NCBI GenBank assembly: GCA_037441945.1
Contig: JBBIRG010000001.1
Coordinates: forward strand, 1-27,556
Source: Bacteroidota bacterium
GTDB lineage: Bacteria; CLD3; SB21; JBBIRG01
Reading direction: 5' to 3'
Length of the DNA stretch: 27,556 nt
Under the pieces are notes generated by a model. The model had not been told where the DNA came from, searched no databases, and worked only from the letters and a program-made list of their open reading frames with translations. Of the stretch, positions 2,400 to 27,556 are shown piece after piece. The translations under genes and the position numbers were made by a program. Every line of letters starts with the position of its first letter. The first letter of the stretch is position 1.

Positions 2400-4154
2400 A
2401 TGAAAAAGCATTTTTTGTGTTTCGTTATTATTCTATTCCTCCAGATCACCGGTTGCGGTCAGGGAGGTAAAGACATCATCAAACCCGACAGGTCGGTTAT
2501 CGTCGCCATCGTAGGAGGGGACACGCTGACCCTGCACGACTTTAAAAAATTTATTCAGCAGGATAAATATAAGCGCGTTGACCTGTCGGCTGCGATGGAG
2601 CGTCACCGGATACTGAATGAGCTTGTCAATCATCATTTGATTTTAAAAAACGTTGAGAATATTGTATTGGAAGGCATTGATTCGGTCGACAGAATTCTGA
2701 AAAACGTTGAAGAGGAACGGCTCGCAGGGCGAATCATCCGGACTAAAATCATTTACCCGAATATTCCCGAAGACGATCTGAGATCGTTTTACGATAAGCT
2801 TCGGATCGAGATGAACGTCCGGCATTTGTTCGTATTTCATAATGAAAACCAGAAAATCAAAATCCGTTCGTCCGAGGTTCCGTACCGTAACCGCAAGCGC
2901 GCAAAAGAAATCGCCGATTCCTTGTACGCGATCGTTAAAAAAAATCCGGGCGCAATGACCGAGGTTATCGAAACGGCTTCCGATGACCAGGAAACGAAAT
3001 ACCGGAAAGGGGAAATCGGGTTCATTCATTACGATAAATTTGATCCGCTTTTTCGCGAAACAATTTTCAATTTGAAAAACAGCGAGATATCCAGCGTCAT
3101 TGAGTCGCCCGATGGTTTTCATATTTTTCAGAAGACCGGGCATCGCGTAACGACTTTGATTGAACCCTATGAGCAGTTGCGTCCCTCTATTCTGGCTTCC
3201 TACGCGCATCGGTATGACGAGAGACCGACAAGGAAAATGGCGGAGGATTACCAGCGGTTTATCGACAGTCTGCTCGGCGCTTATCAGCTGTCGTTTAATG
3301 AAAAAAATATCGGACTGTTCCTGGATCGCTACAGGAAGATAAAAGCGCCGGCCGATATATTGACAATATTTCCATTGGGCGAACGGGGTAAAAATCTGGC
3401 CCAATTTGAGGGAGGATACATTTCCGTGCATGAGCTTGTCAATGCCATGGCGTCGAACCGGACAAAAGTGAAGTTAGACGCGGAACGGATGAAACAGGGG
3501 CTGCGCAATATCGCGACTACCCGCATTCTGGCGGCAGAAGCCCGAAAGCAAAACGTACAATTATCGACGGCCGATCAGGATGATATTCTGGACATGAAAC
3601 GCACAATGCTGAAAGATATCGTTACCTACCGAAATGTCGAGGCGCCGATTGTGATGAATAACAAGACGGTTGAAGAGTTTTATTCCCAGAATCTTCAGCA
3701 TTACAGGGAACCGGACAAAGTCAGTTTTCTTGAATTGTTTGCCGCAGACAAGAACCTGATTGACCTTTATGCGGCAGAAGTGAAGACAGGAAAGGATTTC
3801 AGGAAAGTAGCCAAAAAAGCTGAATCCGTTCAGGGCAACCGTTTCGGTGAAAGCGGACTAATTCCGGTGGAAAAGAAAAACGAACTGACGCTTCACGCAT
3901 GGAAAATGGAACACGGAGAGATCAGCGAACCTTTTACCTGGTCCGGCGGAGGATATTCGATCATTCAACTGCTTGAAAAAAAACCGGGAAGGCAGCTTTC
4001 GTTTAAAGAATCCGAAGAAAAGGCCGGAAGGGATTTTTATCAGTATCAGAAAAAAAACAACATGAGTCTCTGGCTTGCGAAACTGAAAGGCCTCTACCCG
4101 GTTCAAACATTTGAAAGCAATCTAAACGAAATATACGACATCATAAGAAAATGA
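2400..4154 (+). CDS. Parvulin-type peptidyl-prolyl isomerase/foldase lipoprotein (PrsA/SurA/PpiD-like) with two rotamase domains
   Basis: Lipobox ITGC at about Cys19 follows a hydrophobic stretch. Rotamase motif 1 is 'VRHLFV...ASDDQETKYRKGEIGFI...ISSVIESPDGFHIF'. A second, degenerate domain is 'GESGLI...GEISEPFTWSGGGYSII'. GGAG SD at 2391-2394. Confidence 0.88.
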   Translation: MKKHFLCFVIILFLQITGCGQGGKDIIKPDRSVIVAIVGGDTLTLHDFKKFIQQDKYKRVDLSAAMERHRILNELVNHHLILKNVENIVLEGIDSVDRILKNVEEERLAGRIIRTKIIYPNIPEDDLRSFYDKLRIEMNVRHLFVFHNENQKIKIRSSEVPYRNRKRAKEIADSLYAIVKKNPGAMTEVIETASDDQETKYRKGEIGFIHYDKFDPLFRETIFNLKNSEISSVIESPDGFHIFQKTGHRVTTLIEPYEQLRPSILASYAHRYDERPTRKMAEDYQRFIDSLLGAYQLSFNEKNIGLFLDRYRKIKAPADILTIFPLGERGKNLAQFEGGYISVHELVNAMASNRTKVKLDAERMKQGLRNIATTRILAAEARKQNVQLSTADQDDILDMKRTMLKDIVTYRNVEAPIVMNNKTVEEFYSQNLQHYREPDKVSFLELFAADKNLIDLYAAEVKTGKDFRKVAKKAESVQGNRFGESGLIPVEKKNELTLHAWKMEHGEISEPFTWSGGGYSIIQLLEKKPGRQLSFKESEEKAGRDFYQYQKKNNMSLWLAKLKGLYPVQTFESNLNEIYDIIRK

Positions 4155-6592
4155 TCCAGCGGTTTTTCCAGTCCGGCGCTTTGCTGTTTCTGCTTTTTAA
4201 TGCAGTTACGGCGCAGGACAGCCTTTCTGAGACCATTCAAAAACACTATCGCTCAGGTCAGTATGACAGCGTCTGCATTGTATATGACAGGCTTATACAG
4301 GATGGTGCTTTACAAAGTCACGAATATACGCTGCAGGTCTGCGTAGCCAAGTCATATTATTATACCGATCGCAACCGGCAATCCCTGGAGTTGTATAAGA
4401 GAATATATGATTTTCCGTCAGAAGATTCAGTGATTTTCTTGCGCATGCTTATTGATTATGCGTTAGTCCTGACCGAAACCGGGCAGTATGAAACCGCCAG
4501 AACAGTTTTAAGCAGGGCTGGCGCTTTGGTGGGACAATATGGAAGCCGTACCGATCTTGGCCGCTGGCACAACCGTTATGGCGTCTATTATCTCCGCCAG
4601 GGCGAATATGGCAAAAGCCTGTCCCGTCTGGACAGCGCCAAAGCAGTCGCTGACGAACTGATGGATGCGGATCTTCTTTCCTCAGTTTATACAAACTACG
4701 GTATTGTCTATCGAGAAACCGGGCAGTACGGCAAGGCGGTTAAGATTTACCGTTTGGCCGCGCGTATCGACAGTATCAGCGGGAAAGCGCACGATCTTGC
4801 CGTAGACTATGTGAATATAGCGAACGCATATAACGAACTGGGGCTTTACCGGAAAAGCATGGATTACTACCGTCTGGCTGCGGAGACGTACTCTCGGCTG
4901 AACGACACGGCCGGCCTGAGTTTGGTGTACGGGAATCTTGGAACTGTGCATTATGATATAGGCGAATATAAGAGTTCAGCTGAATGTATGGAAAAATCAC
5001 TAAAGCTGAATAAGGGTGATGATTCGCTGGGTTACGCGAGCGCTTTGCTGAATCTGGGTATAGCGTATCAGATGGCCGGCCGTGCGGAAGAATCGGTCAG
5101 TCTGCTATGGGATGCGCGCCGGAGATTTATCCGTCTTTCGCGAAAAACGGAAGAAGCGTATAGCCTGAATTATACTGGACGCGCGCGCCTGATGCTGGAT
5201 CAGGTTGATGAAGCCGAAAAAGCTTTTTTATCGGCAATTGAAATCTTTGAAAGTTCCGAAGTCCCTCAGCTCGGATGGATTGCGTATTACGATTATGCAC
5301 GGCTCAAATTTCAGGCAGGAAAAACGGATTCGGCTGTTGTTCTGCTCGAACGTTCCGTTCAGATGATCGAAGGTCTGCGCGCGGGCACCGAAGACGAGTC
5401 TCTGCTGACGCACTTCATGGAAAATGAAATCCAGCAGGCTTACCGCATGAATGTTTACCTGAATATTCTGATAGGACGGTATTCTTCTGCTTTTCGTATA
5501 TTTGAAAAAAGCAGGGTAAGATCGCTGAAACGTTATGAATTCTCCATGGAACGATCCTCGGGTGATGTTCAGTTCATTGAATACTTTTTGTACGATACAC
5601 TGTGGTTCGCCTTCGTTACGGGCTCCGATACTATCCAGGTGCGTTTTCTGTCCGCCTCGAACTCAGTTATCAGCCGCATCCGCGACTATTATCATTTGAT
5701 CCGATCGGAAAACATCGATTCAAGAATCATCAAAAAAGCTTCTCATAAATTATATGAGTTTTTGCTGCTTCCGCTGACGGATCTTCTTTCTGCGGAAATT
5801 CCGCTTATAATCGTTCCGGATGGGCCGCTGTATTATCTCCCGTTTGAAACTTTATGGACGGGGGAACAGTATCTCATCGAAAAATTTGCTGTCAGTTATG
5901 TTCCCTCCGCGGATTACTATGAACAACTGAAAGAACGGCGACGAATGAGGGAAGGGGATCATTCCAGGTCGGTTTATTTTTTCAAATCAGATTACAGCGA
6001 TATGGATTGCGATATCGGCGGTTTGCCGCTTGAAAAACTGCCTTTTATTGAGAATGAGAAAAATACACTGATGAAATTCATTCGTCTTGATTCGACGAAT
6101 GCTTTTCTGTATACCGGCGGCGAATCGTCGCTGAAAAATTTCGGAAACAGGGAACTCGGCATTCTGCACATTGCCGCTCACGGGATTAACAATCTACTTC
6201 TGCCGGAGCAGTCGGCCCTGGTAACCGGCGCTGGCGGTCATGCGCCGGATGACGGATACCTGACGGCGGAAGAAATCATTCGTCACCGGATAAGCGCAAA
6301 TTTGGTTGTGCTGTCGGCCTGCGAAACGTCGCTGGGCGAATTGCTTTGGGGAGAGGGAATGATCGGCCTGACGCGCGCGTTCCTGCAGTCGGGTTCTTCG
6401 GCGGTCATTTCCACTTTATGGAAGATCCGGGATTCGGCGGCGGCGAATTTCATAGATCGGTTTTATAACTACAAGCTCGTCAATAAAATGGATAGCCGCG
6501 CATCGCTAAAAAATGCCAAAATAGACATGATCCGTTCCGGTAAAAGCCATCCCTTTTACTGGGGGGCCTTTGTTTTATGGGGCTGTCCGTAA
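4151..6592 (+). CDS. TPR-repeat CHAT-domain (caspase-like, clan CD) cysteine protease with predicted signal peptide
   Basis: N-terminal hydrophobic leader (...LFLLFNAVTA|QDS) followed by about 9-10 TPR-like repeats of ~40 aa (e.g. YTNYGIVYRETGQYGKAVKIY). CHAT motifs 'LIIVPDGPLYYLPFETL', 'ILHIAAHG' (catalytic His), 'LVVLSACETSLG' (catalytic Cys), 'VISTLWKIRD' and 'HPFYWGAFVLWG'. ATGA overlap with the upstream gene. Confidence 0.93.
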   Translation: MIQRFFQSGALLFLLFNAVTAQDSLSETIQKHYRSGQYDSVCIVYDRLIQDGALQSHEYTLQVCVAKSYYYTDRNRQSLELYKRIYDFPSEDSVIFLRMLIDYALVLTETGQYETARTVLSRAGALVGQYGSRTDLGRWHNRYGVYYLRQGEYGKSLSRLDSAKAVADELMDADLLSSVYTNYGIVYRETGQYGKAVKIYRLAARIDSISGKAHDLAVDYVNIANAYNELGLYRKSMDYYRLAAETYSRLNDTAGLSLVYGNLGTVHYDIGEYKSSAECMEKSLKLNKGDDSLGYASALLNLGIAYQMAGRAEESVSLLWDARRRFIRLSRKTEEAYSLNYTGRARLMLDQVDEAEKAFLSAIEIFESSEVPQLGWIAYYDYARLKFQAGKTDSAVVLLERSVQMIEGLRAGTEDESLLTHFMENEIQQAYRMNVYLNILIGRYSSAFRIFEKSRVRSLKRYEFSMERSSGDVQFIEYFLYDTLWFAFVTGSDTIQVRFLSASNSVISRIRDYYHLIRSENIDSRIIKKASHKLYEFLLLPLTDLLSAEIPLIIVPDGPLYYLPFETLWTGEQYLIEKFAVSYVPSADYYEQLKERRRMREGDHSRSVYFFKSDYSDMDCDIGGLPLEKLPFIENEKNTLMKFIRLDSTNAFLYTGGESSLKNFGNRELGILHIAAHGINNLLLPEQSALVTGAGGHAPDDGYLTAEEIIRHRISANLVVLSACETSLGELLWGEGMIGLTRAFLQSGSSAVISTLWKIRDSAAANFIDRFYNYKLVNKMDSRASLKNAKIDMIRSGKSHPFYWGAFVLWGCP

Positions 6593-6682: not shown

Positions 6683-7981
6683 ATGAAAATCGATATGGTC
6701 ATGCCGCAGATGGGAGAAAGCATCACTGAAGGCAAAATCCTGAAATGGTTCAAAAAAGTAGGCGAGAAAATATCGAAAGACGAAACCGTTCTGGAAATCA
6801 GCACTGATAAGGTCGATTCGGAAATTCCTTCGCCCGCGACCGGCGTTCTGGCCGAAATTCTCGTGCCGGAGGGCCAAACCGTTGCGGTCGGTGCGCTGAT
6901 CGCGAGAATCGAAACCGAATCCGCGCAGGCAGTCCAGCCGGCCGTCGTGGAAACTCCGGCCGTAAAGAAAGCACAAACGGAAGTGAAAACGGAGATGAAA
7001 AAGGAAGCGCCGCCGGTTCAGCCGCAGATCACAACCGGGAAGTCTGACCGTTTCTATTCTCCGGTGGTTCGCAACATCGCGAAAGCCGAAAGCATATCGG
7101 ATAATGAACTAGCGGCCATTACGGGAACCGGATTGTCGGGCCGCGTCACCAAAGAGGATGTTTTGAGTTACCTTGAACAGCGGAAAAAAGGAACCTTACC
7201 GGCAGTCGCAACGGAATCACCAAAAACGGTGAAGCAGGTTCCTGCCATGAAATTTGAATTTTCCGGCGAACGCACCGAGCGGATACCGATGTCAAATGTC
7301 CGGCAGATTACCGCCGAACACATGCGGCGCAGCCTCGATACTTCGGCGCACGTTTACTCGCTGACGGAAATCGACATGAGCCGCGTCGTCCGCTACCGCG
7401 ATAAATTCAGGCCGGATTTCGAACGGCGCGAGGGATTCAAGCTCACCTACACGCCGTTTATCATCGACGCGATGGTTAAAGCCGTCAAGGATTATCCGAT
7501 GATCAACATTTCCGTTGACGGTAACACGATCATTAAAAAAAATTACATCAATATCAGCATGGCCGTATCCATCGAAAATAATACCGCGCTGATTGTCCCC
7601 GTAATCCGCGATGCCGACCAGCTGAACCTCATCGGCATCGCCCGTGCCGTGTTTGATCTTGCGGAACGCGCGCGGAATAAAAAACTCAAGCCCGAGGAAA
7701 TTCAGGACGGCACCCTCGCCCTGACCAATATGGGCGGTTTCGGTTCGCTCATCGGATTTCCGATCATCAACCAGCCTCAGGTTGCCATTCTTGGTATAGG
7801 CGCGATTAAGAAACGTCCCGTCGTGATCGAAACGCCCGAAGGCGATACCCTTTCAATCCGGCCGATGATGTACGCTTCGCTGTCGTATGATCACCGCGTG
7901 GTGGACGGCGCGCTTGGAGCATCCTACCTGGAACGGGTCGCGCACTATCTGGGACATTTTGATACGGCCCTGACGCTTTAA
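6683..7981 (+). CDS. 2-oxoacid dehydrogenase complex E2 (dihydrolipoamide acyltransferase); substrate class not resolved
   Basis: Single lipoyl domain 'MPQMGESITEG...EISTDKVDSEIPSP' and an Ala/Pro/Lys-rich linker. E3-binding domain 'FYSPVVRNIA...ITGTGLSGRVTKEDV'. Catalytic 'SYDHRVVDGA'. Confidence 0.95.
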   Translation: MKIDMVMPQMGESITEGKILKWFKKVGEKISKDETVLEISTDKVDSEIPSPATGVLAEILVPEGQTVAVGALIARIETESAQAVQPAVVETPAVKKAQTEVKTEMKKEAPPVQPQITTGKSDRFYSPVVRNIAKAESISDNELAAITGTGLSGRVTKEDVLSYLEQRKKGTLPAVATESPKTVKQVPAMKFEFSGERTERIPMSNVRQITAEHMRRSLDTSAHVYSLTEIDMSRVVRYRDKFRPDFERREGFKLTYTPFIIDAMVKAVKDYPMINISVDGNTIIKKNYINISMAVSIENNTALIVPVIRDADQLNLIGIARAVFDLAERARNKKLKPEEIQDGTLALTNMGGFGSLIGFPIINQPQVAILGIGAIKKRPVVIETPEGDTLSIRPMMYASLSYDHRVVDGALGASYLERVAHYLGHFDTALTL

Positions 7982-7990
7982 TGATCCCTG

Positions 7991-8020
7991 ACTCCCGGTG
8001 ATGTGATCGGGAGTTTTTTT
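7991..8020 (+). terminator. Intrinsic terminator after E2
   Basis: ACTCCCGGT-gatgtg-ATCGGGAGT forms a 9-bp stem with one G-U pair and is followed directly by TTTTTT. Confidence 0.85.
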
Positions 8021-8046: not shown

Positions 8047-10005
8047 ATGAAAACATTTTTCGCTGTTTTGTGGTTGTTCGGCCTGTCCTTTCCCTTACCG
8101 GGCCAGGTGTTGCTGAAAGAGGATTTCAGTAAGAAAGGGAAGTTTCCGGAAGATAACCGGACTTATTATTTTAACGGAGTTTATCACGTATACAGCCATG
8201 AAAGCGTCCGGCTGTTTGATCCGTCAAAGAATTTTAAAGATTTTACGGCAGAGATCCGTACCGAATTCATTTCCGGTGCTACCGCGGCATTTTACGGCCT
8301 TTATTTCCGGCACGACAGGCACATGAATGGATATTCATTTCTAATTACCTCGTGGGGTTACTATAACCTGCATCGCACTTTCCAGAAACCGAACGGTGAA
8401 GTTGATTCAGAAAATTTAACCTCAGGTACCGCTGATTCCGTATTCAATAAAAAAGGAGTTAATTATTTAAAAACAGAGTGCAAAGGCGACACTATTCGGT
8501 TGTATATAAACGGGCACAAGGTGCAAACTGTTACCGATTCTGTCATTCCGGAAGGTATCATAGGAATTTATGTTTGGAAAGACTTGCATGTTCATTTTGA
8601 CGATCTGACGGTGTATAAAAAAAATGTTACCGGAAAGTATTCCTTCAAACCCGTATTCCCGGACAGCGCTTTCGATGAAAAGAGTGATTCGAAGACAATC
8701 AATCTGATTAATTTTAACAAATTCACCGGTTGGAAAGATATTCCGGGAGCGTTTCATGAAAATGGTTTGTACAGGATTGATTCATCCGCTTATATCAATA
8801 ACTATATCTATAATTATGTCAATACCGATTTTTCAATCCGCGCCAATTTGAAAATCCGCGAGTGGCCGCGGCATGGCGAACTTCGCCTGAGCTGGTATCC
8901 GGACCAAAGCGATTATGAAACGGAAATAGGGATTATCGGGGATTCCACGCTGAGATATGTAAATAAACCCGCGGGAATAAGGAACACCCTACGAAACTTT
9001 CCGTTTCGCTATGAGACCGGAACATTCGTCCGCCTGCAAATCGATAAAAAGGACGGAGATACAAAAATATCAGTGAATGGCCATGAGCGCATCGTGATCA
9101 TTGACGAAAGCTATGAACCCAGAACGTTCAACTGGATCGAATTCAGAACGGAGGGTATCGGCATCGATTTATATAGTATAAAAATATCGAAACACTCTGA
9201 TGAGGAATACGGAATCGGGACGAAAGACCTGTCTTGTCCGGTTATCCGGGTATCCGGAAATCTTAAAACGGCGAAAAAACCCCCGGTGGAAGATGAATCC
9301 GATCGTATTCCTGAGGACGATTCATCTTTTTTTTCTAATCTTTTTTTGACAATTTTTTCCAATTATTTTTTAACAATCATTCTCATTGGAGCATCGCAAA
9401 TACTCCTGATATGGGGCATCGTTAGATGGAGGAACGCTGTTCGCTACAATGCAACCCATTTTGTGGATTATATCCGGGAAAGAAACGGTTCATTTTTTTT
9501 GAATGAATTTTCAGCCCGGTTCAGGTTCTCGCTGAGCAAAGCGGCCGCGGTAATGGATAAGATGGTGAAGGATTACGGAGGATACCGTTATCCGGTGAAA
9601 GATGAGAATGACGCCTTTTACGATTTTCCGACATTCATGAGTGATGTGCCTAAACCGGTGACCGTAGGATCCTATCCGGATTTCATTGAAAGGATGATCT
9701 CGGCATATGCGAAGAGAATTGGCCTGCCTGAATCTGCGGCGCGGTTTTATTTTTTACAGATTTGTACGCTGGCGGCTCATCTGCAGGGAAGGCTGTCAGT
9801 CCATACTGTGAACAAGAAAATCGAGGAGGGAAGTTTTATATTGGACCGCGCTCATTTTTCACCTTACAAAACAACATGGGATATTGTAATTCTTTTGATG
9901 TCGGAAATTATTGACGATGAGCGTTATATCAGGATTCTCAGCGACGATACGCCGGCCGTGCTGAAATTTCATGAGGATGTGATTAAACACTTTCAGAATC
10001 AGTGA
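8047..10005 (+). CDS. Type I membrane protein, paralog A: two DUF1080/ConA-like ectodomains, one TM, tandem winged-helix-like cytosolic tail
   Basis: Signal peptide (...SFPLPG|QV). Motifs 'YGLYFR', 'GVNYLKTECKGDTIRLYING' and 'GIIGI..LHVHFDDL' are typical of 3-keto-disaccharide-hydrolase-like/DUF1080 beta-sandwiches. TM 'YFLTIILIGASQILLIWGIV' is followed by RWR. Confidence 0.7.
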   Translation: MKTFFAVLWLFGLSFPLPGQVLLKEDFSKKGKFPEDNRTYYFNGVYHVYSHESVRLFDPSKNFKDFTAEIRTEFISGATAAFYGLYFRHDRHMNGYSFLITSWGYYNLHRTFQKPNGEVDSENLTSGTADSVFNKKGVNYLKTECKGDTIRLYINGHKVQTVTDSVIPEGIIGIYVWKDLHVHFDDLTVYKKNVTGKYSFKPVFPDSAFDEKSDSKTINLINFNKFTGWKDIPGAFHENGLYRIDSSAYINNYIYNYVNTDFSIRANLKIREWPRHGELRLSWYPDQSDYETEIGIIGDSTLRYVNKPAGIRNTLRNFPFRYETGTFVRLQIDKKDGDTKISVNGHERIVIIDESYEPRTFNWIEFRTEGIGIDLYSIKISKHSDEEYGIGTKDLSCPVIRVSGNLKTAKKPPVEDESDRIPEDDSSFFSNLFLTIFSNYFLTIILIGASQILLIWGIVRWRNAVRYNATHFVDYIRERNGSFFLNEFSARFRFSLSKAAAVMDKMVKDYGGYRYPVKDENDAFYDFPTFMSDVPKPVTVGSYPDFIERMISAYAKRIGLPESAARFYFLQICTLAAHLQGRLSVHTVNKKIEEGSFILDRAHFSPYKTTWDIVILLMSEIIDDERYIRILSDDTPAVLKFHEDVIKHFQNQ

Positions 10006-10035
10006 CCGATCAAGATCGAAGATACGGATAATGCC

Positions 10036-12027
10036 ATGAATCCAACTTCAAATCATTTATTCCTGACCCTAGCGGCTCTATCGATTTTTCAGGCAACCCT
10101 TTTGGCCCAATTCAAACCCGAAGATTCGGGCAATCCATTCCGTCGACTTTCATCCGTACAAACGCGGGACCTGGATAATGGAGGACTCCATGTCTTTTCT
10201 GAAATGACGCTGACGCGTATCGATACGAATCCCGTTCCCGACGATTTTTATGCGGAGCTGAAAACGGAATTTATCAACGGAAAAGAAGATAAAAGTTACG
10301 GCCTGATCTTCCGCGCCCAGGATTCGCTGAATTTCTACGCTTTCCTGATCCAACCCTCCGGCAAGTATTCTCTCCAGCTGCGCCGTTATTGGAAAAACAA
10401 ACCGATTTCCTGGTCATCAATCACTAAATGGACATCCGATTCGAACATCATCCGGAACGGCGTTAATTACCTGAAAGTCCGCTGTGTGAAAGATTCGATT
10501 ATCCTTTTTATTAACGGCATCCCCGTGAAAGGGCTCCGGGACAAGACTTACAGTAATGGGAAAACCGGTTTATACGCTGAAGGAGGCGTGCATATCCATT
10601 TTCAGGAATTGAAAATCGGCGCGAAACCCCCGGAGACGGTTTATGAGTTTATGCCGGCGGCAGATTCTATGCTGAGTTTGAAACCCGATTCAGCGACCAA
10701 ATGTTTTTACGATTTTCTGGAGACAAAACCGGACTGGGCTAATGAACCGGAAAATTATTTTGAACGGGGATTTTACCGAATGCATTTATCGGAACAATAT
10801 CCGTCGCACACTATCGGTTGCGGGATGGAAAATTTCACAATGGAGATGAATGTCCGGATTATGCGGTGGGATTCGGCGGGTCTGCTGCGCGTCATGTACC
10901 ATGTCGGAAAGTATTCCCATGAACAAAAAGGAATCTCGCTCGAATCCGATTCGGTCGTCAAATATTTTAATGATTATCATACCGCTGACACTAAGCCGCT
11001 GATTGTACGGATTCCTTTTCAATATGATTCCGGGCGCGCGGTGCACCTGAAATTAGACGTTCAGGATACCGATGTCAAACTCAGCATCGACGGCGTTGAG
11101 CGTATCCTCATCATTGATGAACGCTTTAACGAACCGGTCAGGGGATATTTCAAGCTGTACCTGCATCGTCTCAGCGCCGACATACACAGCATCCGCATCA
11201 GCAGCCGCCCGATCGACGAATACGGGCTAGCCTCAACGATGCCGACCTGCGCCGTGTACCGGCTGAGTCCACCGAAAGAAACGACCTTTAAGCCGCCTGT
11301 TCGGAAAGAGAAATCAAAAAATCCGGTTGTTAAGTTTTTCAAACAACTTGAAAGAGACATGGATGAGTGGTTCTGGGTTATGGTTTTCGGTATTGCCGTT
11401 CTGCTGGTTTCAGGGATCATCATGCTGATCGCCAGGATTCGCGGGAACAAAAAATTTAACAGCATGTTCGAAAATATGTTTCTGAAATACATGACCCTTC
11501 AGAACGGATCGGCTGGATTAAAGCAAATCGCGAAGCATTTCGGTGTTTCGCCGAAAAAAACTTTAAAACACATCAGTCGTTTTGCCGATCAGCACCAGAT
11601 TCTGTTACAGGTGGCCGGAAATCAGGATATGCTGATCGTGATTCCCGGATTGATGATCGCCCTGCCGGAAACCTGCGAACCTGTTTTACAAAAACTGACA
11701 GACAGCCAATCTCCCTTCCGGCTGACGCCGACGGAGGCTAAACGCGATCTTCTGACTCTTATGCGCATCGCTTCTGTTAATGGTAACCGGTTATCGGTCG
11801 GTATCCTTCAAAGGGAATACGACGTTCAGCCCGACCGTATATGTTTTTTTAAAAATATTATTTCCCAAAAAAACCGGTCTTTTTCGGAAGAATTTGAGAA
11901 ATCCGCATACCGGCTGTTTAATTCGCTGGTTGAAGAAAAAAACATTATCAAGGATACGGCGTCTGATGAAACGGCGGTCATCATTGCGGGAGATTTTATC
12001 CGCGCGATTATCGATTTGAATAAATAA
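10036..12027 (+). CDS. Type I membrane protein, paralog B: same architecture as A
   Basis: Signal peptide (...FQATLLA|QF). Motifs 'YGLIFRAQD..NFYAFLI', 'GVNYLKVRCVKDSIILFING' and 'GKTGLY..VHIHFQEL'. TM 'WFWVMVFGIAVLLVSGIIMLIA' is followed by RIRGNKK. The cytosolic tail aligns with A. Confidence 0.7.
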   Translation: MNPTSNHLFLTLAALSIFQATLLAQFKPEDSGNPFRRLSSVQTRDLDNGGLHVFSEMTLTRIDTNPVPDDFYAELKTEFINGKEDKSYGLIFRAQDSLNFYAFLIQPSGKYSLQLRRYWKNKPISWSSITKWTSDSNIIRNGVNYLKVRCVKDSIILFINGIPVKGLRDKTYSNGKTGLYAEGGVHIHFQELKIGAKPPETVYEFMPAADSMLSLKPDSATKCFYDFLETKPDWANEPENYFERGFYRMHLSEQYPSHTIGCGMENFTMEMNVRIMRWDSAGLLRVMYHVGKYSHEQKGISLESDSVVKYFNDYHTADTKPLIVRIPFQYDSGRAVHLKLDVQDTDVKLSIDGVERILIIDERFNEPVRGYFKLYLHRLSADIHSIRISSRPIDEYGLASTMPTCAVYRLSPPKETTFKPPVRKEKSKNPVVKFFKQLERDMDEWFWVMVFGIAVLLVSGIIMLIARIRGNKKFNSMFENMFLKYMTLQNGSAGLKQIAKHFGVSPKKTLKHISRFADQHQILLQVAGNQDMLIVIPGLMIALPETCEPVLQKLTDSQSPFRLTPTEAKRDLLTLMRIASVNGNRLSVGILQREYDVQPDRICFFKNIISQKNRSFSEEFEKSAYRLFNSLVEEKNIIKDTASDETAVIIAGDFIRAIIDLNK

Positions 12028-12044
12028 ATCCGGAGAAAGCATCT

Positions 12045-13544
12045 ATGAAACCGATCATGATTTTAATTGCCTTCATCAGTATCCTTCCCCTGCGCGCGCA
12101 GATGTTGTGGGAGGAACGGTTCGAACAACCCGATGCGTTTTCCGAATCCCAGTACGCGCATTTCAAAAACGGCGTATATCATATTTTTGGCAAGAACGGC
12201 CGTGTGACCACCAGCAATAAATTAATTATCGATGACGCTGCCATCCGGATCAAAACTGATTTCATCAGCGGTGAAGAGAACCAGGGGTATGGATTAATTT
12301 TCCGAGCAAAAGATTTTGATAATTTCTATATATTTGTCATATCGGCCAACGGACACTATTACCTGAGGAAAAAAATCAATAAGGAATATTATAATATTAT
12401 CGACTGGACGTCTTCGCAAGAAATCAATAAAAACGGCGTAAATTACCTCGCGGTATCATGCAACGGTCCCAAAATCGAACTGTATATCAACGGAAAACAA
12501 ATCAACCGCGCCGCTGATCCGTCGCTGACCTCCGGCAAAATAGGGCTCATCGCATTTTCCGGCGTGCATGCTCATTTCGATGACCTCCTGGTTGCGCGGA
12601 ACCTCTCCGATATGATTGAACGCTACGATTTTACGCCTGAACCTCCCGATTATACCGGCGATTTTCCCGAAGACCCGGCGTATCTTTTAACGGATAATTT
12701 CGATAATATGAGTAGCGGCTGGGGGCAGAGCGATAATGTATATTATGAGCGCGGTTATTACACCATGTGGAATCAGGAGGACATGCATTATACCTGGCAT
12801 CATTTTTCCCAGAAAAACTACATTCTGGAAACGAATTTCCAGATCAAACGCCGGTTTCCGGAAGTATTCCCGGATAAGACCGGCATTTTTTTCCGCGCCG
12901 AGAAGACCACCGATTTTTATTCACTGTCGGTATCGAAAAACAAGTCGGTTCTTTTAGAAAAAAGAATCAACAGTTTCAATAAAATTCTGCACGAACAAAA
13001 ACTGGAATCGCTTGATTTTAACAACATGATCCGGATGAAGGTCAGCGTGCATGACGATGAAATTCAGTGCTGGGTCAATGACGAATGGCTCGGGAAATTC
13101 AGCGATCCAATCAATACGCTGGAGTATTTCAATTTTGGCTTTTTTGCGTCGAAAGGCGTACAACTTCAAGTTTACGGCATTCGGCTCGGGGATATCAAAA
13201 TCGACTGGGGGGAAGCGCTTGCCGGTTTTTTCTCAAGTCGGGGATTCATCAGTATCACCGTAATAATTTTACTTTTTGTCCTAATCCGGATCGGCGTTAA
13301 ATCGCGCCTTAAAAAAATCCGGATCGCGGGCATTCTTCAGAAGACTATGCGCAAATACATTGAGGACAAGCGCGGCTCGTTCAGCATAACGAATGTGATG
13401 AACGATTTCCATCTTGACATCAAGACGGCAAAACAAATCATGGACGAAGCCTGCGCGCGTTACCAGGGTCACCATCTGATTTCACAGGACGGAAATGACT
13501 GGTACGATTTTCCGGATTATTTCCGCAGCGGTTCGAAGGATTAA
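12045..13544 (+). CDS. Type I membrane protein, paralog C: two DUF1080-like ectodomains, TM, single winged-helix-like cytosolic domain
   Basis: Signal peptide (...ILPLRA|QM). Motifs '[18 protein letters not shown]', '[20 protein letters not shown]' and '[14 protein letters not shown]'. A second repeat has '[16 protein letters not shown]'. TM '[18 protein letters not shown]' is followed by KSRLKK. Confidence 0.72.
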
Positions 13545-14560
13545 ATATCCAGGCCGAGTTGGGGAGTGTTGGTTTTTAGGGTTTTGATGTTCAGGTACTG
13601 GTAGGCGATGGCAGTGACTTCGCGTCCGCGCGGAGTCCGTTTGATCAATCCCCGCTGGATTAAAAAAGGTTCATACACTTCTTCAATCGTTCCGGCTTCC
13701 TCGCCGACGGAAATCGCGATCGTATCGATGCCGACGGGTCCGCCGCTGAATTTGTCTATAATGGTTGTCAGAATGCGTTTATCCATTTCGTCGAGTCCGT
13801 GTTCGTCCACTTCAAGCGCATGGAGCGAGTAATCGGCGACGGATTGGGTAATGATCGGTTCTTTGCGCACCTGGGCGAAATCGCGCGTCCGTTTCAGCAG
13901 GCGGTTGGCGATACGAGGCGTTCCGCGCGAACGCTTGGCGATCTCCTCAGCGCCTCTTTCATCGATATCGATTTTCAGAATCCGCGAGGAACGCTTGACG
14001 ATTTTAGTCAGGTTGCCGTCGTCGTAATAATCCAGCCGGCTGGTGATCCCGAACCGCGAGCGCAGCGGCGCGGTGATCAGTCCCGCCCGCGTCGTGGCGC
14101 CGATCAGCGTGAAATGCGGCAAAGTCAGCTGGATGGTGCGCGCGCTCGGGCCTTTATCAATGACGATGTCTAATTTGTAATCTTCCATCGCTGAATATAA
14201 ATACTCCTCAACCACCGGGTTGAGCCGGTGAATTTCATCGATGAACAGGACGTCGCGCTCGTCTAAGTTTGTCAGGATACCGGCCAGGTCGCCGGCCTTG
14301 TCAATCACTGGACCCGAGGTTACACGAATCTGTACGCCAAGCTCGTGGGCGATAATATGAGACAGCGTCGTTTTACCCAGTCCCGGCGGGCCGGAAAGCA
14401 GAACATGATCCAGCGCTTCTTGTCTCATCCGCGCCGCTTCGATGAACACTTTCAGGTTGCCGACCATCCGTTCCTGTCCGACGAATTCGTCGAATCGCGA
14501 AGGGCGAAGCGTCACATCTAATTCCAGATCATCTGCGGTCTTGTTGGGTCGGTTGCTCAT
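13541..14560 (-). CDS. ruvB: Holliday junction branch migration ATPase RuvB
   Basis: '[12 protein letters not shown]', Walker A '[10 protein letters not shown]', Walker B 'LFIDEIHRL', '[16 protein letters not shown]', '[11 protein letters not shown]' and '[17 protein letters not shown]'. Confidence 0.99.
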
Positions 14561-20509: not shown

Positions 20510-20669
20510 GATAAAAGATGAAACCTAAAATTGGCTGTCTTCCGGTTTTATAATGATTATGTCTTAATAATTCAACAACCTTAACTTGATTCTGTGGGCG
20601 TTTCATATTATCATTTACTGTAAGTCTGTTTTCTATCACAGAAAATTTCCGGGATTGCGGGTGCGTTTT

Positions 20670-23216
20670 ATGTTGTTAAGCAAAATTCTTAATAAGATGC
20701 GGCATATCGTCGTTTTCACAGTGTTTGTCTTTGCGTGTATAACGGAAGCCAACCCGCAGGATATTTCCGGTACCACGTTTATTCTGCGCGATGATACGGA
20801 AGTTTTGCGCCTGCGAGAATCCGCCGATTTTATCGAAGACCGGACCGGGGACTTGCCATTCGATTCTGTTCTGTCGCGCTTCGCGTTATCGGGTCATCAG
20901 GCGTATATCGGCGCGACGCCGAATTTCGGTTTTACAGGATCCGTGGTCTGGCTCCGGCTGAAAATAGCGAATTTGTCTTCAGTCAATCACTGGATGCTGG
21001 AAATCGGTTATCCGCTTCTGGATGAGATTGATTTTTATTATCCGGGCAAAACGCAGGATTGGCATATCATCCGGACGGGCGACCAGCGGCCGGCCGGACA
21101 GCGTTATATTCAGAACCGCAATTACCTTTTTCATATTGAGGCGCCGGAAGACGAATACCGGATATTTTACATCCGTGTCCGGACGGAAGGATCGCTTCAG
21201 ATTCCCGTTGCGGTATGGACGCCGCAGAAATTATTCGGAAAAATCAGCAATGAGTCGCTGGTGCTCGGCGGTTTTTACGGGTTGCTGATCCTGATGTTTT
21301 TGTATAATCTCTTCCTTTTTGCGTGGGTCAGGGACCGGATATATCTGTTGTATGTTGTATTTATTATTTTCTACGGCGTCGGCCAGTCGGCGCTCGACGG
21401 GCTGGCGGCGGTTTATATCTGGCCGGAAGCGATGGGATGGGTGAATAAAAGCGTCGTTGTTCTGATGACGATCGCATTGCTATTCGCGGCTTACTTCACC
21501 AAATCCTTTCTGGATATCCGCGAGAACATACGTTATTATGAACCGGTCATATCAGCGGTTGTCTGGCTCGGCTGGATTCTGCTTGTCATTTCCTTTTTCA
21601 TCAGTTATTCCGTCAGCATCACGGCTTTTGCCGTGCTAGCGGTTCTGTTTTCAGCCGTAGCCCTTGTTGCGGGAATTCTGGTCAGCCTGAAAGGTTATAA
21701 ACCGGCCTTTTATTTTTTAATCGGCTGGGGCGTGTTTCTGATCGGGATTGCCGTATACGCGTTCAAGAGTTTCGGCATCTTTCCTTCGAATTTTATCACG
21801 CATTACGGCGTACAGCTTGGCGCGACGGTGAAAGTGATCCTGCTGTCGCTCGGTATCGCTCAGCGCGTCAGCCTGCTGAAGGAAGAATTGGCCCGGAAAA
21901 CGCTTGATCAGGAACGAATGGAGCATGAAAAAGAAATTGAAAAGAAAGAACTCATTGAATCGCAGAAAAGGGAACTGGAGGCTCTTGTCCGGGTAAGAAC
22001 GGCGGAACTTCAGCGGAAAAGCGATGAACTGGAAAAAGTCAACGTCATTGTCCAGGCAATCAATTCGGAGATCAGCTTCAGCGCGCTTTTAGACGCTATT
22101 CTGAAAGAACTGAAAATTATCCGGGCCGTTGACCGGGCGAGCATTCTTGTTTATGATAACACGAACGAAGCGGTCGAGCTGAAGGCGATTTCGGGGTGGG
22201 AACTTGGAAAAGCCGGAATAGCTGACAATTATTTTTCAGAAATCCGGAAACACTACCGGATCCTTGCCGCAAACGGACGGGACGAGCTGATCGTATTTCA
22301 GCCTCAGTTCGGAAAGCCACCGGAAGACGCGGTTGCCGCAAAATCGGTGATGATGATCGAGATCGCCACGGAACAAAGGATCGAAGGGTATATTCTTTTT
22401 GAGAATCTGAAAGGGGACGCGTTTCAGGAGGAGGATATCGCGCTGCTGAATAAACTGAAGCATCCGATCAAGACGGCGTTTCTTAAAGCCCGGATGCTGG
22501 AGGAACTGCAGGAACTGAACGAAAAGAAAAACGAATTCCTTGGCGTCGCGGCTCACGATCTCCGGAATCCTCTGGGGGCGATCATCGGTTTTACCGATCT
22601 GCTGGTGCAGGATATCCGGTCCGGTCAGTTTGTCGCCGAAGAGGGCGTCCGCGATATGGAAATGGTGCTGAGTTCAGCCCGGCAGATGCTGCACCTGATC
22701 ACAGAACTATTAGACATCTCGGCGATCGAAGCCGGGAAAGTCTCGCTGAGCCTGCACAGGGAAAATCTGGGTGAAATTCTAGACGATTGCGAAAAGATCC
22801 ATAAACGCGCCGCCGCGCAGAAACAAATTGCACTGACGATCATCCGCCCGGAAGAATTTCCCCAGGTGCTGGCGGATAAATCGCGCATGGCCGAGGTAAT
22901 GGATAACCTGCTGAGCAACGCGATCAAGTACACCTATCCGGGAGGCCGGGTTGACGTGTCCGCTGAATTACGAAGCGGCGAAGCGGTGATCCATATCCGC
23001 GATACCGGACAGGGCCTCAGCGAAGAGGACCTCAAGCAGATATTCAGGAGTTTCAAAAAACTCAGCGCGCGGCCAACGGGCGGGGAGTCCAGCACCGGAT
23101 TCGGCCTGGCTATCGTGAAGAAAATCGTCGAACTGCACGGCGGAAAAGTCTGGGTCAGTTCCGTTCAGGGAAACGGTTCGACTTTCTCGTTCACGCTGCC
23201 CCTGGCTGTAAAGTAA
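20670..23216 (+). CDS. Sensor histidine kinase: 7TMR-DISM extracellular domain, 7TM-DISM, GAF-like, HisKA, HATPase_c
   Basis: DISMED2-like 'PNFGFTGSVVWLRL..WMLEIGYPLLDEIDFY' and seven hydrophobic helices ('GGFYGLLILMFLYNLFLF...YFLIGWGVF...LLSLGIAQR'). GAF-like 'DRASILVYD..VELKAISG'. H-box 'AAHDLRNPL', N-box 'NLLSNAIKYT', G1 'DTGQGL', G2 'GFGLAIV'. The true start is likely ATG 20670 or 20697, not TTG 20586. Confidence 0.93.
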   Translation: MLLSKILNKMRHIVVFTVFVFACITEANPQDISGTTFILRDDTEVLRLRESADFIEDRTGDLPFDSVLSRFALSGHQAYIGATPNFGFTGSVVWLRLKIANLSSVNHWMLEIGYPLLDEIDFYYPGKTQDWHIIRTGDQRPAGQRYIQNRNYLFHIEAPEDEYRIFYIRVRTEGSLQIPVAVWTPQKLFGKISNESLVLGGFYGLLILMFLYNLFLFAWVRDRIYLLYVVFIIFYGVGQSALDGLAAVYIWPEAMGWVNKSVVVLMTIALLFAAYFTKSFLDIRENIRYYEPVISAVVWLGWILLVISFFISYSVSITAFAVLAVLFSAVALVAGILVSLKGYKPAFYFLIGWGVFLIGIAVYAFKSFGIFPSNFITHYGVQLGATVKVILLSLGIAQRVSLLKEELARKTLDQERMEHEKEIEKKELIESQKRELEALVRVRTAELQRKSDELEKVNVIVQAINSEISFSALLDAILKELKIIRAVDRASILVYDNTNEAVELKAISGWELGKAGIADNYFSEIRKHYRILAANGRDELIVFQPQFGKPPEDAVAAKSVMMIEIATEQRIEGYILFENLKGDAFQEEDIALLNKLKHPIKTAFLKARMLEELQELNEKKNEFLGVAAHDLRNPLGAIIGFTDLLVQDIRSGQFVAEEGVRDMEMVLSSARQMLHLITELLDISAIEAGKVSLSLHRENLGEILDDCEKIHKRAAAQKQIALTIIRPEEFPQVLADKSRMAEVMDNLLSNAIKYTYPGGRVDVSAELRSGEAVIHIRDTGQGLSEEDLKQIFRSFKKLSARPTGGESSTGFGLAIVKKIVELHGGKVWVSSVQGNGSTFSFTLPLAVK

Positions 23217-23575: not shown

Positions 23576-24649
23576 TCAGTTATTTTTCAGCAGCATTTCG
23601 TTTTCCGCTAAATGCAATTTTTCGATGATCTCTTCGATCCGGCCGAGCATAACCGATTCCAGGTTATAGAGCGTTAAACCGATGCGGTGGTCGGTAAGCC
23701 GGTTTTGGGGATAATTATACGTGCGGATTTTCTCGCTGCGGTCGCCGGAGCCCACCATGGATTTTCGTTGCGAGGCGATTTTGGACTGCTGTTCGGATTT
23801 TTGCTTTTCAAAAAGCCTTGATTTAAGCACTTTCATAGCCTTTTCGCGGTTTTTAAGCTGGGAGCGTTCTTCCTGACACTGGACGACGATCCCGGTGGGC
23901 AGATGCGTGAGACGCACGGCGGTTTCGACTTTATTGACGTTCTGACCGCCTTTACCGCCGGCGCGGTAGATGTCGATGCGAAGGTCGTTGGGACTGATCA
24001 CGATATCGTCTTTGCTGACTTCGTCGATGACGGGCAGTACGGCCACGGACGCGGCGGAGGTATGCACGCGTCCCTGGGTCTCGGTTTTCGGGACGCGCTG
24101 GACCCGGTGGACGCCGCTCTCAAATTTCAGATTGCCGTACGCGCCGAATCCCTGAACTTCGAAGATGATTTCCTTGAAACCGCCCATGTTCGCTTCGGTG
24201 AAATCGAAGACCTCGATTTTCCATTTCTGGGAATCGATGTACTGGCGGTACATGCCGAACAAGTCGCCCGCGAAAATGCCGGCTTCGTCGCCTCCTGTGC
24301 CGGCGCGGATTTCCAGGATGCAGTCGCCGTCGTCCATCGGGTCTTTGGGTATCAGCAGCAATTTCAGTTCGTCTTCGATCCGGTTTTTACTGATTTCCAG
24401 TTCGTCCATTTCGGATTTGGCCATCGCCCGCAGTTCCTGGTCATCAGAATGGAACAGGATTTCTTTTGCTCCGCCGATGCCCTGCAGGACCCGGCTGTAT
24501 TCGGAGAACTTTTCAACGATCGGCTCCAGGCCGCGCCGTTCCTTGTTCAGGTTTTTCAGGTTTTCCTGGTTGCGGACCACATCCGGCTGATACATCTGCT
24601 CGTTGATTTCGTCAAAGCGTTTTTTTATTTTTTCTAATTGTTCGATCAT
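23576..24649 (-). CDS. prfA: Peptide chain release factor 1
   Basis: '[12 protein letters not shown]', '[24 protein letters not shown]' (PxT = RF1 specificity), '[10 protein letters not shown]' (GGQ) and '[20 protein letters not shown]'. Confidence 0.98.
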
Positions 24650-24723
24650 ATAGGTTACCGTTGCGCCTGAAAATAAAAAAGGAACATGACACGGTCATAT
24701 TCCTTTTGCGGAAAAAATTTTGA

Positions 24724-24957
24724 CTATTCCTGTTCCGGCTTCGTATCTTTGGCGCCTTTATATTTGGCGAATTTTTTATTGTATTTCTCGACGCGCCCGG
24801 CGGTGTCAATCAGTTTCTGCGTTCCTGTATAGAACGGATGGCAGTTCGAGCAGAGTTCGACGTGGATATCGCCTGCCGTTGAGCGCGTGCGGAAAGTGTT
24901 GCCGCAGGAACAAGTCACCGTGGACATCGGGTACGTCGGGTGAATTCCTTCTTTCAT
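24724..24957 (-). CDS. rpmE: 50S ribosomal protein L31, zinc-binding (C+) type
   Basis: 'MKEGIHPTY...TCSCGN...[27 protein letters not shown]'. All four Cys are present. AAGGAG SD. Confidence 0.98.
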
Positions 24958-25119
24958 AAAATCTCCTTAATCGGAAAATCGTTTAATAAGTGCAATTATA
25001 TTCAAGATTATAACTATAACGAATAAATTTAATTAAATCAATAATTATTTTGAATTTTTACAAAGTTTTTTACAAGGTTTTATAAAGTTCTATTTGGTTT
25101 TTTGCGTGGGAATATTATT

Positions 25120-25154
25120 AAAGAAAGGCCGGATCAAAGGAGGAAAATCCAGCC
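25120..25154 (-). terminator. Terminator-like hairpin closing the polysaccharide locus
   Basis: Minus strand GGCTGGAT-tttcctcctttg-ATCCGGCC (one U-G pair) is followed by TTTCTTT. Confidence 0.5.
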
Positions 25155-25337
25155 GTGTTGCACTCGAGCTACTCACTCAACCGATCGGGTACGATTGACC
25201 CCAAAAATACCATATCTATAGAAACAAGATACACACAACAATAATTTTTTAAAAGCGAATATTGATAAGTGGTTATTAGATATGTTTAACGGCTAAAAGA
25301 GGGTTGCTAAATTAAAGATAAGGCTGCCTGATTTGGA

Positions 25338-26459
25338 TTAAGGCTTTTTATGATTAATTTGCCTGTCGAATTTTTCAACCATTTTGATAAAAGTTCTGTA
25401 AGCGGGTTTTTCTGTCCAGTCATGCCAGATAAGTCCGAAATTATCCTCAGGGTCGTTCCTATTCGAACCTCGATCGTATATCGAATACCAAAGAAAAGGG
25501 CCGGCCCATGTTTCTTGAAACCATGATTCAAAATATGTAATCATATAATCTGATTGCGAATCCTCGTCGATTCCGGCAGAACACGTTGGAAAACCAACTT
25601 CAGTGCACCAAAGTTTCTTTGAACTGTCTTTATTAGCGTGTAAAATGTCAGAGATTTGTTTTGTTTTCAAAAACCAGTTATTATCATGCGGTTTAAGTGG
25701 ATCATGAGGCCATGAATAAGGATGAACAGCAATACCGTCAAAATAGTTTTTCCCGCCGTATGCATATATTCCCTGAATAAAATCAAGCGGAGATATGTCT
25801 TTACCATTAGAATTAACCGGAGCGGTTCCGCCCGTAAGGATGGTCACAGTTTTATTGCATTCCCGGGCAGCCCGTCGAAAGGCTGTTGAACCCGGAATTA
25901 ATATTTGTCGGACATACTTCTCAGGGTCAGGGTTTTTATAAAAATAATCGCTGTTGGGTTCATTGTATAATTCCCAAACATCGACACCTTTAGGAATATA
26001 TCTCAAACCGGTTTCATAAATAAAATTATACCAGTATAAATCAGTCATATCTTTATCAAGCCACATTGGAAAGTATCCAATAACGGCGATTGTTTTTAAA
26101 TTATATTTATTGATAATGTTAATTACCCGGTCCAACTTTTCCCATTCGTAATGCTTTGAGCGTTTTTTTTGAAGTTCGGGCCACGGGAAATCGATCCGTA
26201 TATAGGTTGTTCCTGTCTGGGCGCATCGGGATACTATGCTATCGATAGTTGAGTCGGGATAATGTAATATCCAGCCTGTAGCTATTCCGGTTTTATTGAG
26301 TCTGCCTGACTTATCAGCCTGACTGAATGCTTTATTGCACTGCCCGAAAAAAATTATTGATAAAAATGCTAATGACTTTAATGATATAGATTCACATAGT
26401 GCTTGCTTTAAAATGTTAACAGGACAACGGGTAAAAAAAGGAAAGAATGAGATAGGCAT
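25338..26459 (-). CDS. Clan GH-A glycoside hydrolase (GH5/GH39-like, 'cellulase family'), probably exported
   Basis: 'YIRIDFPW', acid/base 'WELYNEPN', 'FDGIAVHPYSW', nucleophile 'LWCTEVGFP' and 'FLWYSIYD...EDNFGLI..DWTEKPAY'. A hydrophobic leader ends in KAFS|QA. Confidence 0.85.
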   Translation of the reverse strand: MPISFFPFFTRCPVNILKQALCESISLKSLAFLSIIFFGQCNKAFSQADKSGRLNKTGIATGWILHYPDSTIDSIVSRCAQTGTTYIRIDFPWPELQKKRSKHYEWEKLDRVINIINKYNLKTIAVIGYFPMWLDKDMTDLYWYNFIYETGLRYIPKGVDVWELYNEPNSDYFYKNPDPEKYVRQILIPGSTAFRRAARECNKTVTILTGGTAPVNSNGKDISPLDFIQGIYAYGGKNYFDGIAVHPYSWPHDPLKPHDNNWFLKTKQISDILHANKDSSKKLWCTEVGFPTCSAGIDEDSQSDYMITYFESWFQETWAGPFLWYSIYDRGSNRNDPEDNFGLIWHDWTEKPAYRTFIKMVEKFDRQINHKKP

Positions 26460-26471
26460 ATGATACAGTAA

Positions 26472-27431: not shown

Positions 27432-27444
27432 TTCAATCCCGAAT

Positions 27445-27555
27445 TTATTTTGACAGGTTATTTTTCCATTCCTGAATCATTGAATCTACATGAAATTTAA
27501 TTGATCTTTCAAACGTTTCGCGGCTGAATTTTTCCGCGTGTGCCCGTATTAAAGC
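27445..27555 (-). CDS. 3' end of a probable GT4 (GT-B) glycosyltransferase, running off the window and absent from the ORF track
   Basis: Reading the minus strand from 27555 gives ALIRAHAEKFSRETFERSIKFHVDSMIQEWKNNLSK* with TAA at 27447-27445. 'IRAHAEKFSRETF' matches the typical C-terminal helix of GT4 enzymes. It sits 13 nt upstream of the epimerase. Confidence 0.7.
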   Translation of the reverse strand, partial: ALIRAHAEKFSRETFERSIKFHVDSMIQEWKNNLSK

Positions 27556-27556
27556 C

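Follow-up and report, generated by a model that had tools for sequence, protein, structure and literature searches.

In Bacteroidota, glycan sensing is thought to rely mainly on hybrid two-component systems, SusR-like regulators, and pairs of extracytoplasmic function (ECF) sigma and anti-sigma factors. The RsgI-type anti-sigma factors of Clostridium thermocellum are single-pass proteins that carry a carbohydrate-binding module (CBM) as their ectodomain. Their N-terminus is cytosolic and holds an anti-sigma-I domain, and they are encoded next to sigI. In the membrane-bound regulators CadC and ToxR, a flexible linker lies between the membrane and the winged helix (WH). This report describes three adjacent genes, here called A, B, and C, at positions 8047-13544 of a 27,556-nucleotide stretch of DNA (the window) from a Bacteroidota bacterium (GenBank assembly GCA_037441945.1, contig JBBIRG010000001.1). 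The source of the window is a subsurface metagenome. The encoded proteins can be classed as single-pass transmembrane (TM) receptors with a WH output, having an ectodomain of the PF06439/concanavalin A (ConA)-like clan and a WH tail of an unnamed family. This design is real and undescribed.

The closest described systems each share a part of this design. The likeness to RsgI would lie in the linking, within one single-pass protein, of a carbohydrate-binding module outside the cytoplasm and a protein-binding domain inside it. Unlike RsgI, the trio has neither an anti-sigma domain nor an adjacent sigI-type gene, as judged from Pfam scans of A, B, C, and their neighbors. ToxR/CadC-type transmembrane transcription regulators (TTRs) are also single-pass proteins with a periplasmic sensor, a cytosolic WH, and no kinase (PMC10269533; PMC5430869). 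However, the order is reversed. ToxR and CadC start with an N-terminal cytosolic OmpR-type winged helix-turn-helix (wHTH), followed by the TM helix and the periplasmic sensor, whereas the trio starts with a signal peptide and an N-terminal ectodomain and ends with the WH. The WH of the trio is not of the OmpR type, has no match to Trans_reg_C, is mostly acidic, and lacks the flexible linker. TTRs have been defined by at least one TM region and a recognized DNA-binding domain (Demey et al., 2023). Each protein of the trio has the former, and at the Pfam and NCBIfam cutoffs a recognized DNA-binding domain was found in none.

The ectodomain also has described relatives. PF06439 includes 3-keto-glucoside lyase/hydratases, and the members that have been characterized are soluble enzymes of the periplasm whose genes lie next to those of dehydrogenases. 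Domain 1 of A and C scores above the Pfam cutoff for this family, and the ConA-like fold is shared with the PF06439 proteins BT3469 (4jqt) and BT2157. Unlike in these proteins, a TM helix in the trio joins the domains to a WH tail in the cytosol. Genes of a 3-keto-glycoside pathway (Gfo/Idh/MocA dehydrogenase, isomerase-like genes) were not found at the locus, where the neighbors are a 2-oxoacid dehydrogenase E2 acyltransferase gene, (in some genomes) thiE, and ruvB in all genomes examined. CBM66 of Bacillus subtilis, a non-catalytic glycan-binding module, matches the modeled ectodomain in fold, but it is appended to a secreted glycoside hydrolase.

Three paralogs with one architecture

Genes A (8047-10005, 652 amino acids), B (10036-12027, 663 amino acids), and C (12045-13544, 499 amino acids) are open reading frames (ORFs) on the plus strand, separated by gaps of 30 nt (A-B) and 17 nt (B-C). 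Protein A consists of a signal peptide, two ConA-like domains, a linker, a TM helix, a first winged helix (WH1), an insert, and a second winged helix (WH2). Protein B has the same architecture, and protein C has a signal peptide, two ConA-like domains, a TM helix, and a single WH. In BLASTP comparisons, A and B are 29% identical over 560 amino acids (E 9e-65), A and C are 24% identical (E 2e-37), and B and C are 32% identical over the N-terminal half (E 6e-36). Three ectodomain motifs, YGLxFR, GVNYLxxxCxxxxIxLxING, and GxxG(L/I)...(V/L)HxHF, are present in A, B, and C, and an alignment of 23 family members showed their residues to be mostly invariant.

Hydropathy profiles revealed a short, basic, hydrophobic leader at the N-terminus of each protein (residues 1-19 of A, positions 8047-8103; residues 1-24 of B; residues 1-18 of C). 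The residue directly after the leader, Gln20 in A, is Gln in 23 of 23 aligned sequences. Bacteroidetes signal peptidase I substrates have been shown to carry Gln at position +1, the so-called Q-rule (PMC5837995), and the invariant +1 Gln fits this rule. Cleavage of this Sec signal peptide probably occurs just before the invariant Gln. Besides the leader, each protein has one strong hydrophobic segment, the predicted TM helix. It comprises residues 441-459 in A (9367-9423; Kyte-Doolittle peak 2.33), residues 448-466 in B (11377-11433), and residues 400-418 in C (13242-13298). Among family members, the 14 residues that follow it sum to a net charge between +3 and +8, and under the positive-inside rule this places the C-terminus in the cytosol.

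An AlphaFold2 (AF2) model of full-length A, built on the 23-sequence alignment, reached a mean predicted local distance difference test (pLDDT) score of 78.9. In this model, domains 21-190 and 217-382 are all-beta and the linker 404-437 is disordered. The TM helix runs unbroken into the first helix of WH1 (helix 440-478), with no linker between them. Scans against Pfam and NCBIfam found no kinase, cyclase, or sigma domain in A, B, or C, and no model that spans the whole architecture or the tail; NCBIfam gave zero matches to the three proteins. The three paralogs very probably belong to an unnamed family, restricted to one clade, of single-pass proteins that sit in the inner membrane in type-I (N-out/C-in) orientation.

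Much of this anatomy had been put forward in an original prediction made from the DNA alone. The ORF coordinates and BLASTP comparisons agree with its claim of three co-oriented, closely spaced paralogs, and the motifs that it quoted recur in all three proteins. The order of signal peptide, two sandwiches, TM helix, basic stretch, and cytosolic WH tail was reproduced by Pfam, hydropathy, AF2, and Foldseek. Hydropathy and the positive-inside charge agree that the tail is cytosolic rather than outside, and the Pfam and NCBIfam scans upheld the statements that no kinase, cyclase, or sigma factor is involved and that no named family has the same domain order. Its assignment of the ectodomains to the ConA-like sandwiches was supported by the AF2 models and by Foldseek matches to 4jqt, CBM66, galectins, and LamG domains.

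The ectodomain

The membrane-distal domain 1 of A (residues 21-190, 8107-8616) is the better conserved of the two sandwiches. The PF06439 model (formerly DUF1080; "3-keto-disaccharide hydrolase") matches residues 61-189 of A. Its scores on domain 1 are 28.3 bits for A, 27.0 for C, and 14.5 for B. With a gathering cutoff of 26.8 bits, A and C lie above the threshold, and B lies below it but is homologous to both. The membrane-proximal domain 2 (residues 217-382 of A, 8695-9192) is a degenerate repeat of domain 1, with beta strands in the AF2 model. The homology of the two domains was detected by hhalign (probability 99.6%, E 3.5e-24). When the tandem sandwich of A was compared with the PDB by Foldseek, BT3469 (4jqt) was matched at E 7e-16, and tandem galectins and laminin LG4-5 pairs were also retrieved. 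The best structural match to a single domain was CBM66 (4azz/4b1m), with a TM-score of 0.72-0.76 and 21% identity.

Nearly all invariant residues are in domain 1, namely H47, Y83, G84, R88, Y96, N139, N155, H181, H183, and D185/D186. In A, H47, H181, H183, D185, and D186 are on the first and last beta-strands of this domain. Because residues alternate along a strand, these side chains should face one side, and the invariant His/Asp set could form a metal or catalytic site.

Domains of the same type occur in other protein settings. In the genome of the window (G000), contig C65 encodes a secreted 613-amino-acid HExxH protein (L004:66-1907, minus strand) whose C-terminus is a ConA-like domain of this type, with a PF06439 score of 24 bits. 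The motifs SGYGFMFR, GVNTLRIDC, and VHVLFDEL of this protein are similar to those of the trio. C11 peptidases also carry this type of domain. In the Ser/Thr receptor kinase P0016 (622 amino acids), the order is kinase, Pro-rich linker, TM helix, and an extracellular C-terminal ConA-like domain that is 29% identical to C (E 2e-12). These peptidase and receptor-kinase settings are as expected of a portable ligand-binding module.

The cytosolic winged-helix tail

In alignments of the family, the tail resolves into a module of about 65 residues that is present once or twice. In A, WH1 spans residues ~466-527 (9442-9627), and an extra helix with WH2 spans residues ~545-652 (9679-10002). Alignments place WH1 of B at about positions 11458-11658, WH2 of B at about 11734-12024, and the single WH of C at about 13326-13526. 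WH1 and WH2 are homologous (hhalign probability 95.7%, E 8.6e-9). An AF2 model of the tail of A alone, built on 30 sequences, reached a pLDDT of 87.8 and a predicted template modeling (pTM) score of 0.83, and it shows a helix-strand-helix-helix-hairpin topology twice. DSSP assigned helix 11-20, strand 24-26, helices 27-34 and 38-52, and strands 55-59 and 64-68 to the first module, and WH2 repeats this order. The tail model thus has the H1-S1-H2-H3-hairpin wing topology of a winged helix. Foldseek superposed the tail on MarR/MepR with a local root-mean-square deviation of 2.5 Å over about 60 residues.

The fold is otherwise generic. Tail searches of the PDB, AFDB clusters, and ESM Atlas by shape retrieved only generic WH and tandem-WH matches at E 0.001 or worse, which included RPC62, TFIIIC, UFL1-DDRGK1, MukE, SelB, and MarR-type regulators. 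A search of the ESM Atlas by features gave nothing specific. On the three tails, no model of Pfam or NCBIfam, DNA-binding or other, reached its threshold. HTH_24, HTH_10, and HTH_PafC gave sub-threshold matches to WH1 of B. In the sister family, WH2 of two proteins scored 21.1 and 23 bits with a FeoC-like WH model, marginally above its cutoff of 21. Of 18 members, 16 have an acidic to neutral WH1, with an isoelectric point (pI) of 4.6-6.8; helix H3 of WH2 is acidic. WH1 of B has a pI of 9.9, and WH1 of the sister family has a basic patch, K-x-K/R-I-S-K-K/R, at the turn between H2 and H3.

A PDB profile search with the tail also retrieved calmodulin (E 1e-3). The match arises because the DGxxxYDFPDF segment of the tail resembles DGNGTIDFPEF of calmodulin. 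An EF-hand identity of the tail was rejected: the segment was modeled as the wing hairpin of the WH, the Ca-ligand positions are unconserved, and position 1 of the loop is not a conserved Asp.

The tail module in other proteins

Searched exhaustively with HMMER, the tail profile matched 351 representatives at E<=1e-3, 22 of them at E<=1e-10. About 17 proteins with the architecture of the trio ranked first, followed by three other kinds of protein. The first kind comprises polytopic membrane proteins of ~450-530 amino acids with two or three copies of the module, which account for 69 of the top 150 matches; P0031, P0035, P0041, P0042, and L039:6001-7488 are among them, and profile matches such as those of P0031, P0041, and P0042 range from E 1e-14 to 1e-5. 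These proteins share the cytosolic membrane-associated module with the trio but differ in their membrane domains, lack a ConA-like ectodomain, and are equally uncharacterized. The second kind is small proteins with a TM helix and one WH, and the third is a few soluble proteins with two WHs. A TM-like segment is present in 138 of 146 WH-bearing matches. The idea that the module always directly follows a TM helix was rejected, as a TM helix lies <=45 residues upstream in only 47 of 231 modules.

Ten of the matched proteins were scanned against Pfam and NCBIfam and none had a match at cutoff; NCBIfam gave only far-sub-threshold matches on eight. A cluster look-up of proteins with the module returned no informative names. 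The genomic context of one polytopic member, P0035, gave no functional hint. Judged by its profile, the tail is an unannotated predicted winged-helix module that is found nearly always on membrane proteins.

Distribution and evolution

Word-based homolog searches found very few members of the family, and members were gathered from the genomes of relatives. A search of sequencing runs for RNA turned up only DNA metagenomes, from subsurface and sludge samples. The tail profile has a match in 14 of 20 representative genomes of the class and in neither of the two genomes of the other family in the class, f3. The slot that holds the genes is conserved throughout one order: the E2 acyltransferase gene, thiE in the sister family, the receptor gene or genes, and a convergent ruvB-lpxD-skp-skp-bamA-uppS array. 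The sister family has a single copy of ~560 amino acids with two WHs in this slot in eleven genomes. The family of the window has three copies in all three of its genomes.

Gene C is closest to the single-copy form, with 27-33% identity to the sister-family orthologs over the full length (BLASTP). In a tree, A, B, and one copy from genome G002 group together, apart from the C-like copies and the single-copy clade, and the third copy arose separately in the two genera. Between genome G000 and the sister genome G001, identity is 67% for A, 42% for B, and 50% for C, compared with 82-90% for E2 and RuvB. The trio thus evolves faster than its neighbor genes. The conserved slot and the tree show vertical inheritance from one ancestral copy, followed by duplication, in a narrow family of one uncultured order.

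The original prediction had also remarked that the block is richer in AT than the core genes. The difference is real but modest, with a GC content of 41-47% in the A-B-C block and 50-55% in its flanks. Given the conserved synteny of the locus throughout the order, the lower GC content does not point to foreign DNA, and a horizontally acquired island was rejected on the same ground.

In the sister family, thiE (TMP-TENI, E 6e-61) lies between the E2 and receptor genes at L019:9886-10530 and in L020, L022, L024, L025, and L027; it is absent from the slot in the family of the window. In L019, L020, and L025, the receptor gene starts inside the end of thiE, with an overlap of 4 nt in L019 and L020, and this suggests that the receptor is probably co-transcribed with E2 and thiE there. 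G001 has two copies of the whole trio locus (C1:585383-590825 and C9:116845-122287), whose scores are identical. The doubling is probably an artifact of assembly or binning; the contamination of this genome is 6%.

Possible functions of the trio

The preferred reading, held tentatively, is that A, B, and C are type-I sensors or adaptors for an envelope ligand (a glycan) with a WH tail that binds a cytosolic partner. The ligand of the distal lectin-like domain would come from the envelope or the environment and would most likely be a glycan. Occupancy or clustering would be relayed to the tail through the rigid connection between the TM helix and the WH. The tail would then bind a cytosolic partner (a protein, possibly a nucleic acid), and classical sequence-specific repression or activation would not be its role. 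Duplication with subfunctionalization would account for the three copies, and since their ectodomains have diverged, their ligands probably differ. A protein is favored over DNA as the partner because of the acidic to neutral WH1 of most members and the acidic H3 of WH2, the lack of a DNA-binding family above cutoff on the three tails, the absence of a flexible linker between the membrane and WH1, and the use of the WH module as a general accessory of membrane proteins. The same tail charge, lack of DNA-binding families, and rigid TM junction weaken the earlier proposal that the trio are carbohydrate-responsive one-component receptors.

Several points weigh against the sensor/adaptor reading. 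The family is from uncultured organisms only and its sensor function is inferred. The neighbors E2, thiE, and ruvB offer no functional hint. Because PF06439 includes 3-keto-glucoside lyase/hydratases, H47, H181, H183, and D185-D186 could serve in catalysis or metal binding instead of lectin-type binding. The K/R-rich H2-H3 turn of the sister family and the basic WH1 of B would be compatible with DNA binding. Finally, the alignments behind the structural models are shallow, with 23 and 30 sequences.

The compatibility with DNA leads to the idea of membrane-tethered one-component transcription regulators of inverted topology, in which a periplasmic lectin would sense a glycan and the cytosolic WH would bind promoter DNA. 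The tail has a true wHTH topology by AF2 and DSSP, WH1 of B adds its weak sub-threshold HTH matches and its high pI to the basic turn of the sister family, and TTRs are common and diverse in Bacteroidota (PMC10269533). Such regulators are nevertheless unlikely here. No DNA-binding family reached its cutoff on A, B, or C, and both WH1 in most members and H3 of WH2 are acidic. WH1 is rigidly fused to the TM helix, unlike the linker arrangement of CadC and ToxR, and among the nearest folds in the PDB and AFDB, tandem WH arrays that bind proteins are as frequent as regulators. The 4-nt overlap with thiE in the sister family also means that the gene has no promoter of its own that could hold an auto-operator. 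A rather unlikely alternative dispenses with signaling: the trio would be envelope proteins that bind or process glycans in the periplasm while anchored in the membrane, with the WH serving only for anchoring, oligomerization, or localization. PF06439 does include real enzymes (BT2157), invariant His, Asp, and Arg residues occur in domain 1, and the same domain is joined to secreted peptidases as a targeting module. The faster evolution of the trio relative to its neighbors is often seen in envelope proteins. However, no Gfo/Idh/MocA dehydrogenase or sugar-phosphate-isomerase-like partner of a 3-keto pathway is encoded nearby, and a tail that is conserved, folded, and retained or duplicated across the family exceeds the needs of an anchor.

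The original prediction also allowed for a heteromeric membrane complex; that A, B, and C make up an obligate one is very unlikely. Their tight co-oriented spacing (30 and 17 nt) and the retention of three copies in all three genomes of the family of the window would agree with such a complex. The eleven sister-family genomes with a single copy in the same slot argue that a heteromer is not required for the basic function of the family, and the separate origins of the third copy in two genera also count against it.

Neighboring genes and other features of the window

Upstream of A, a terminator-like hairpin (7990-8015, plus strand) with a 10-bp stem that has five GC pairs is followed by a T-run, and it is also kept in G001. 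It lies 3' of the E2 acyltransferase gene (6683-7981, plus strand; Pfam PF00198, PF00364, and PF02817). Downstream, ruvB (13541-14560, minus strand; Pfam RuvB_N, AAA_lid_4, and RuvB_C) is convergent with C and overlaps it by 4 nt at the stop codon. The positions of both genes are conserved across the order. The upstream terminator and convergent ruvB had been noted in the original prediction, and both were confirmed.

Other features lie further away. Positions 2400-6592 encode a peptidyl-prolyl isomerase (PPIase) with two or three rotamase domains and, after a 4-nt overlap, a TPR-CHAT caspase-like protein with an N-terminal hydrophobic leader; the PPIase/CHAT pair is kept beside E2 in G001 and G002. 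A 7TMR-DISM sensor histidine kinase (7TMR-DISMED2, 7TM, HisKA, and HATPase_c) is encoded at 20586-23216 on the plus strand, between uppS and prfA/B. At the end of the window (24500-27556), the GC content falls to 36-39%. This region holds genes for an NAD-dependent epimerase/dehydratase (26472-27431, minus strand) and a 373-amino-acid ORF without a Pfam match (25338-26459, minus strand), and it resembles the border of a locus for polysaccharide synthesis.

Concluding remarks

Compared with the glycan-sensing systems of Bacteroidota outlined above, the trio suggests simpler wiring, in which one helix links a lectin-type ectodomain to a small winged helix in the cytosol and no enzyme serves as the output domain. 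Its present impact is limited, since the family does not extend beyond a single uncultured order and its proposed function is putative. It is doubtful that the trio represents a new class of transmembrane regulator with inverted (type-I) topology, in which the lectin would read a glycan and the membrane-apposed WH would act on DNA or on the transcription machinery. If that were true, the trio would provide the first example, and one with a tractable ligand, of a wider, unannotated superfamily of membrane-associated WH modules with ~350 representative proteins. The partner of the tail module, once found, would give a function to several hundred orphan protein clusters.

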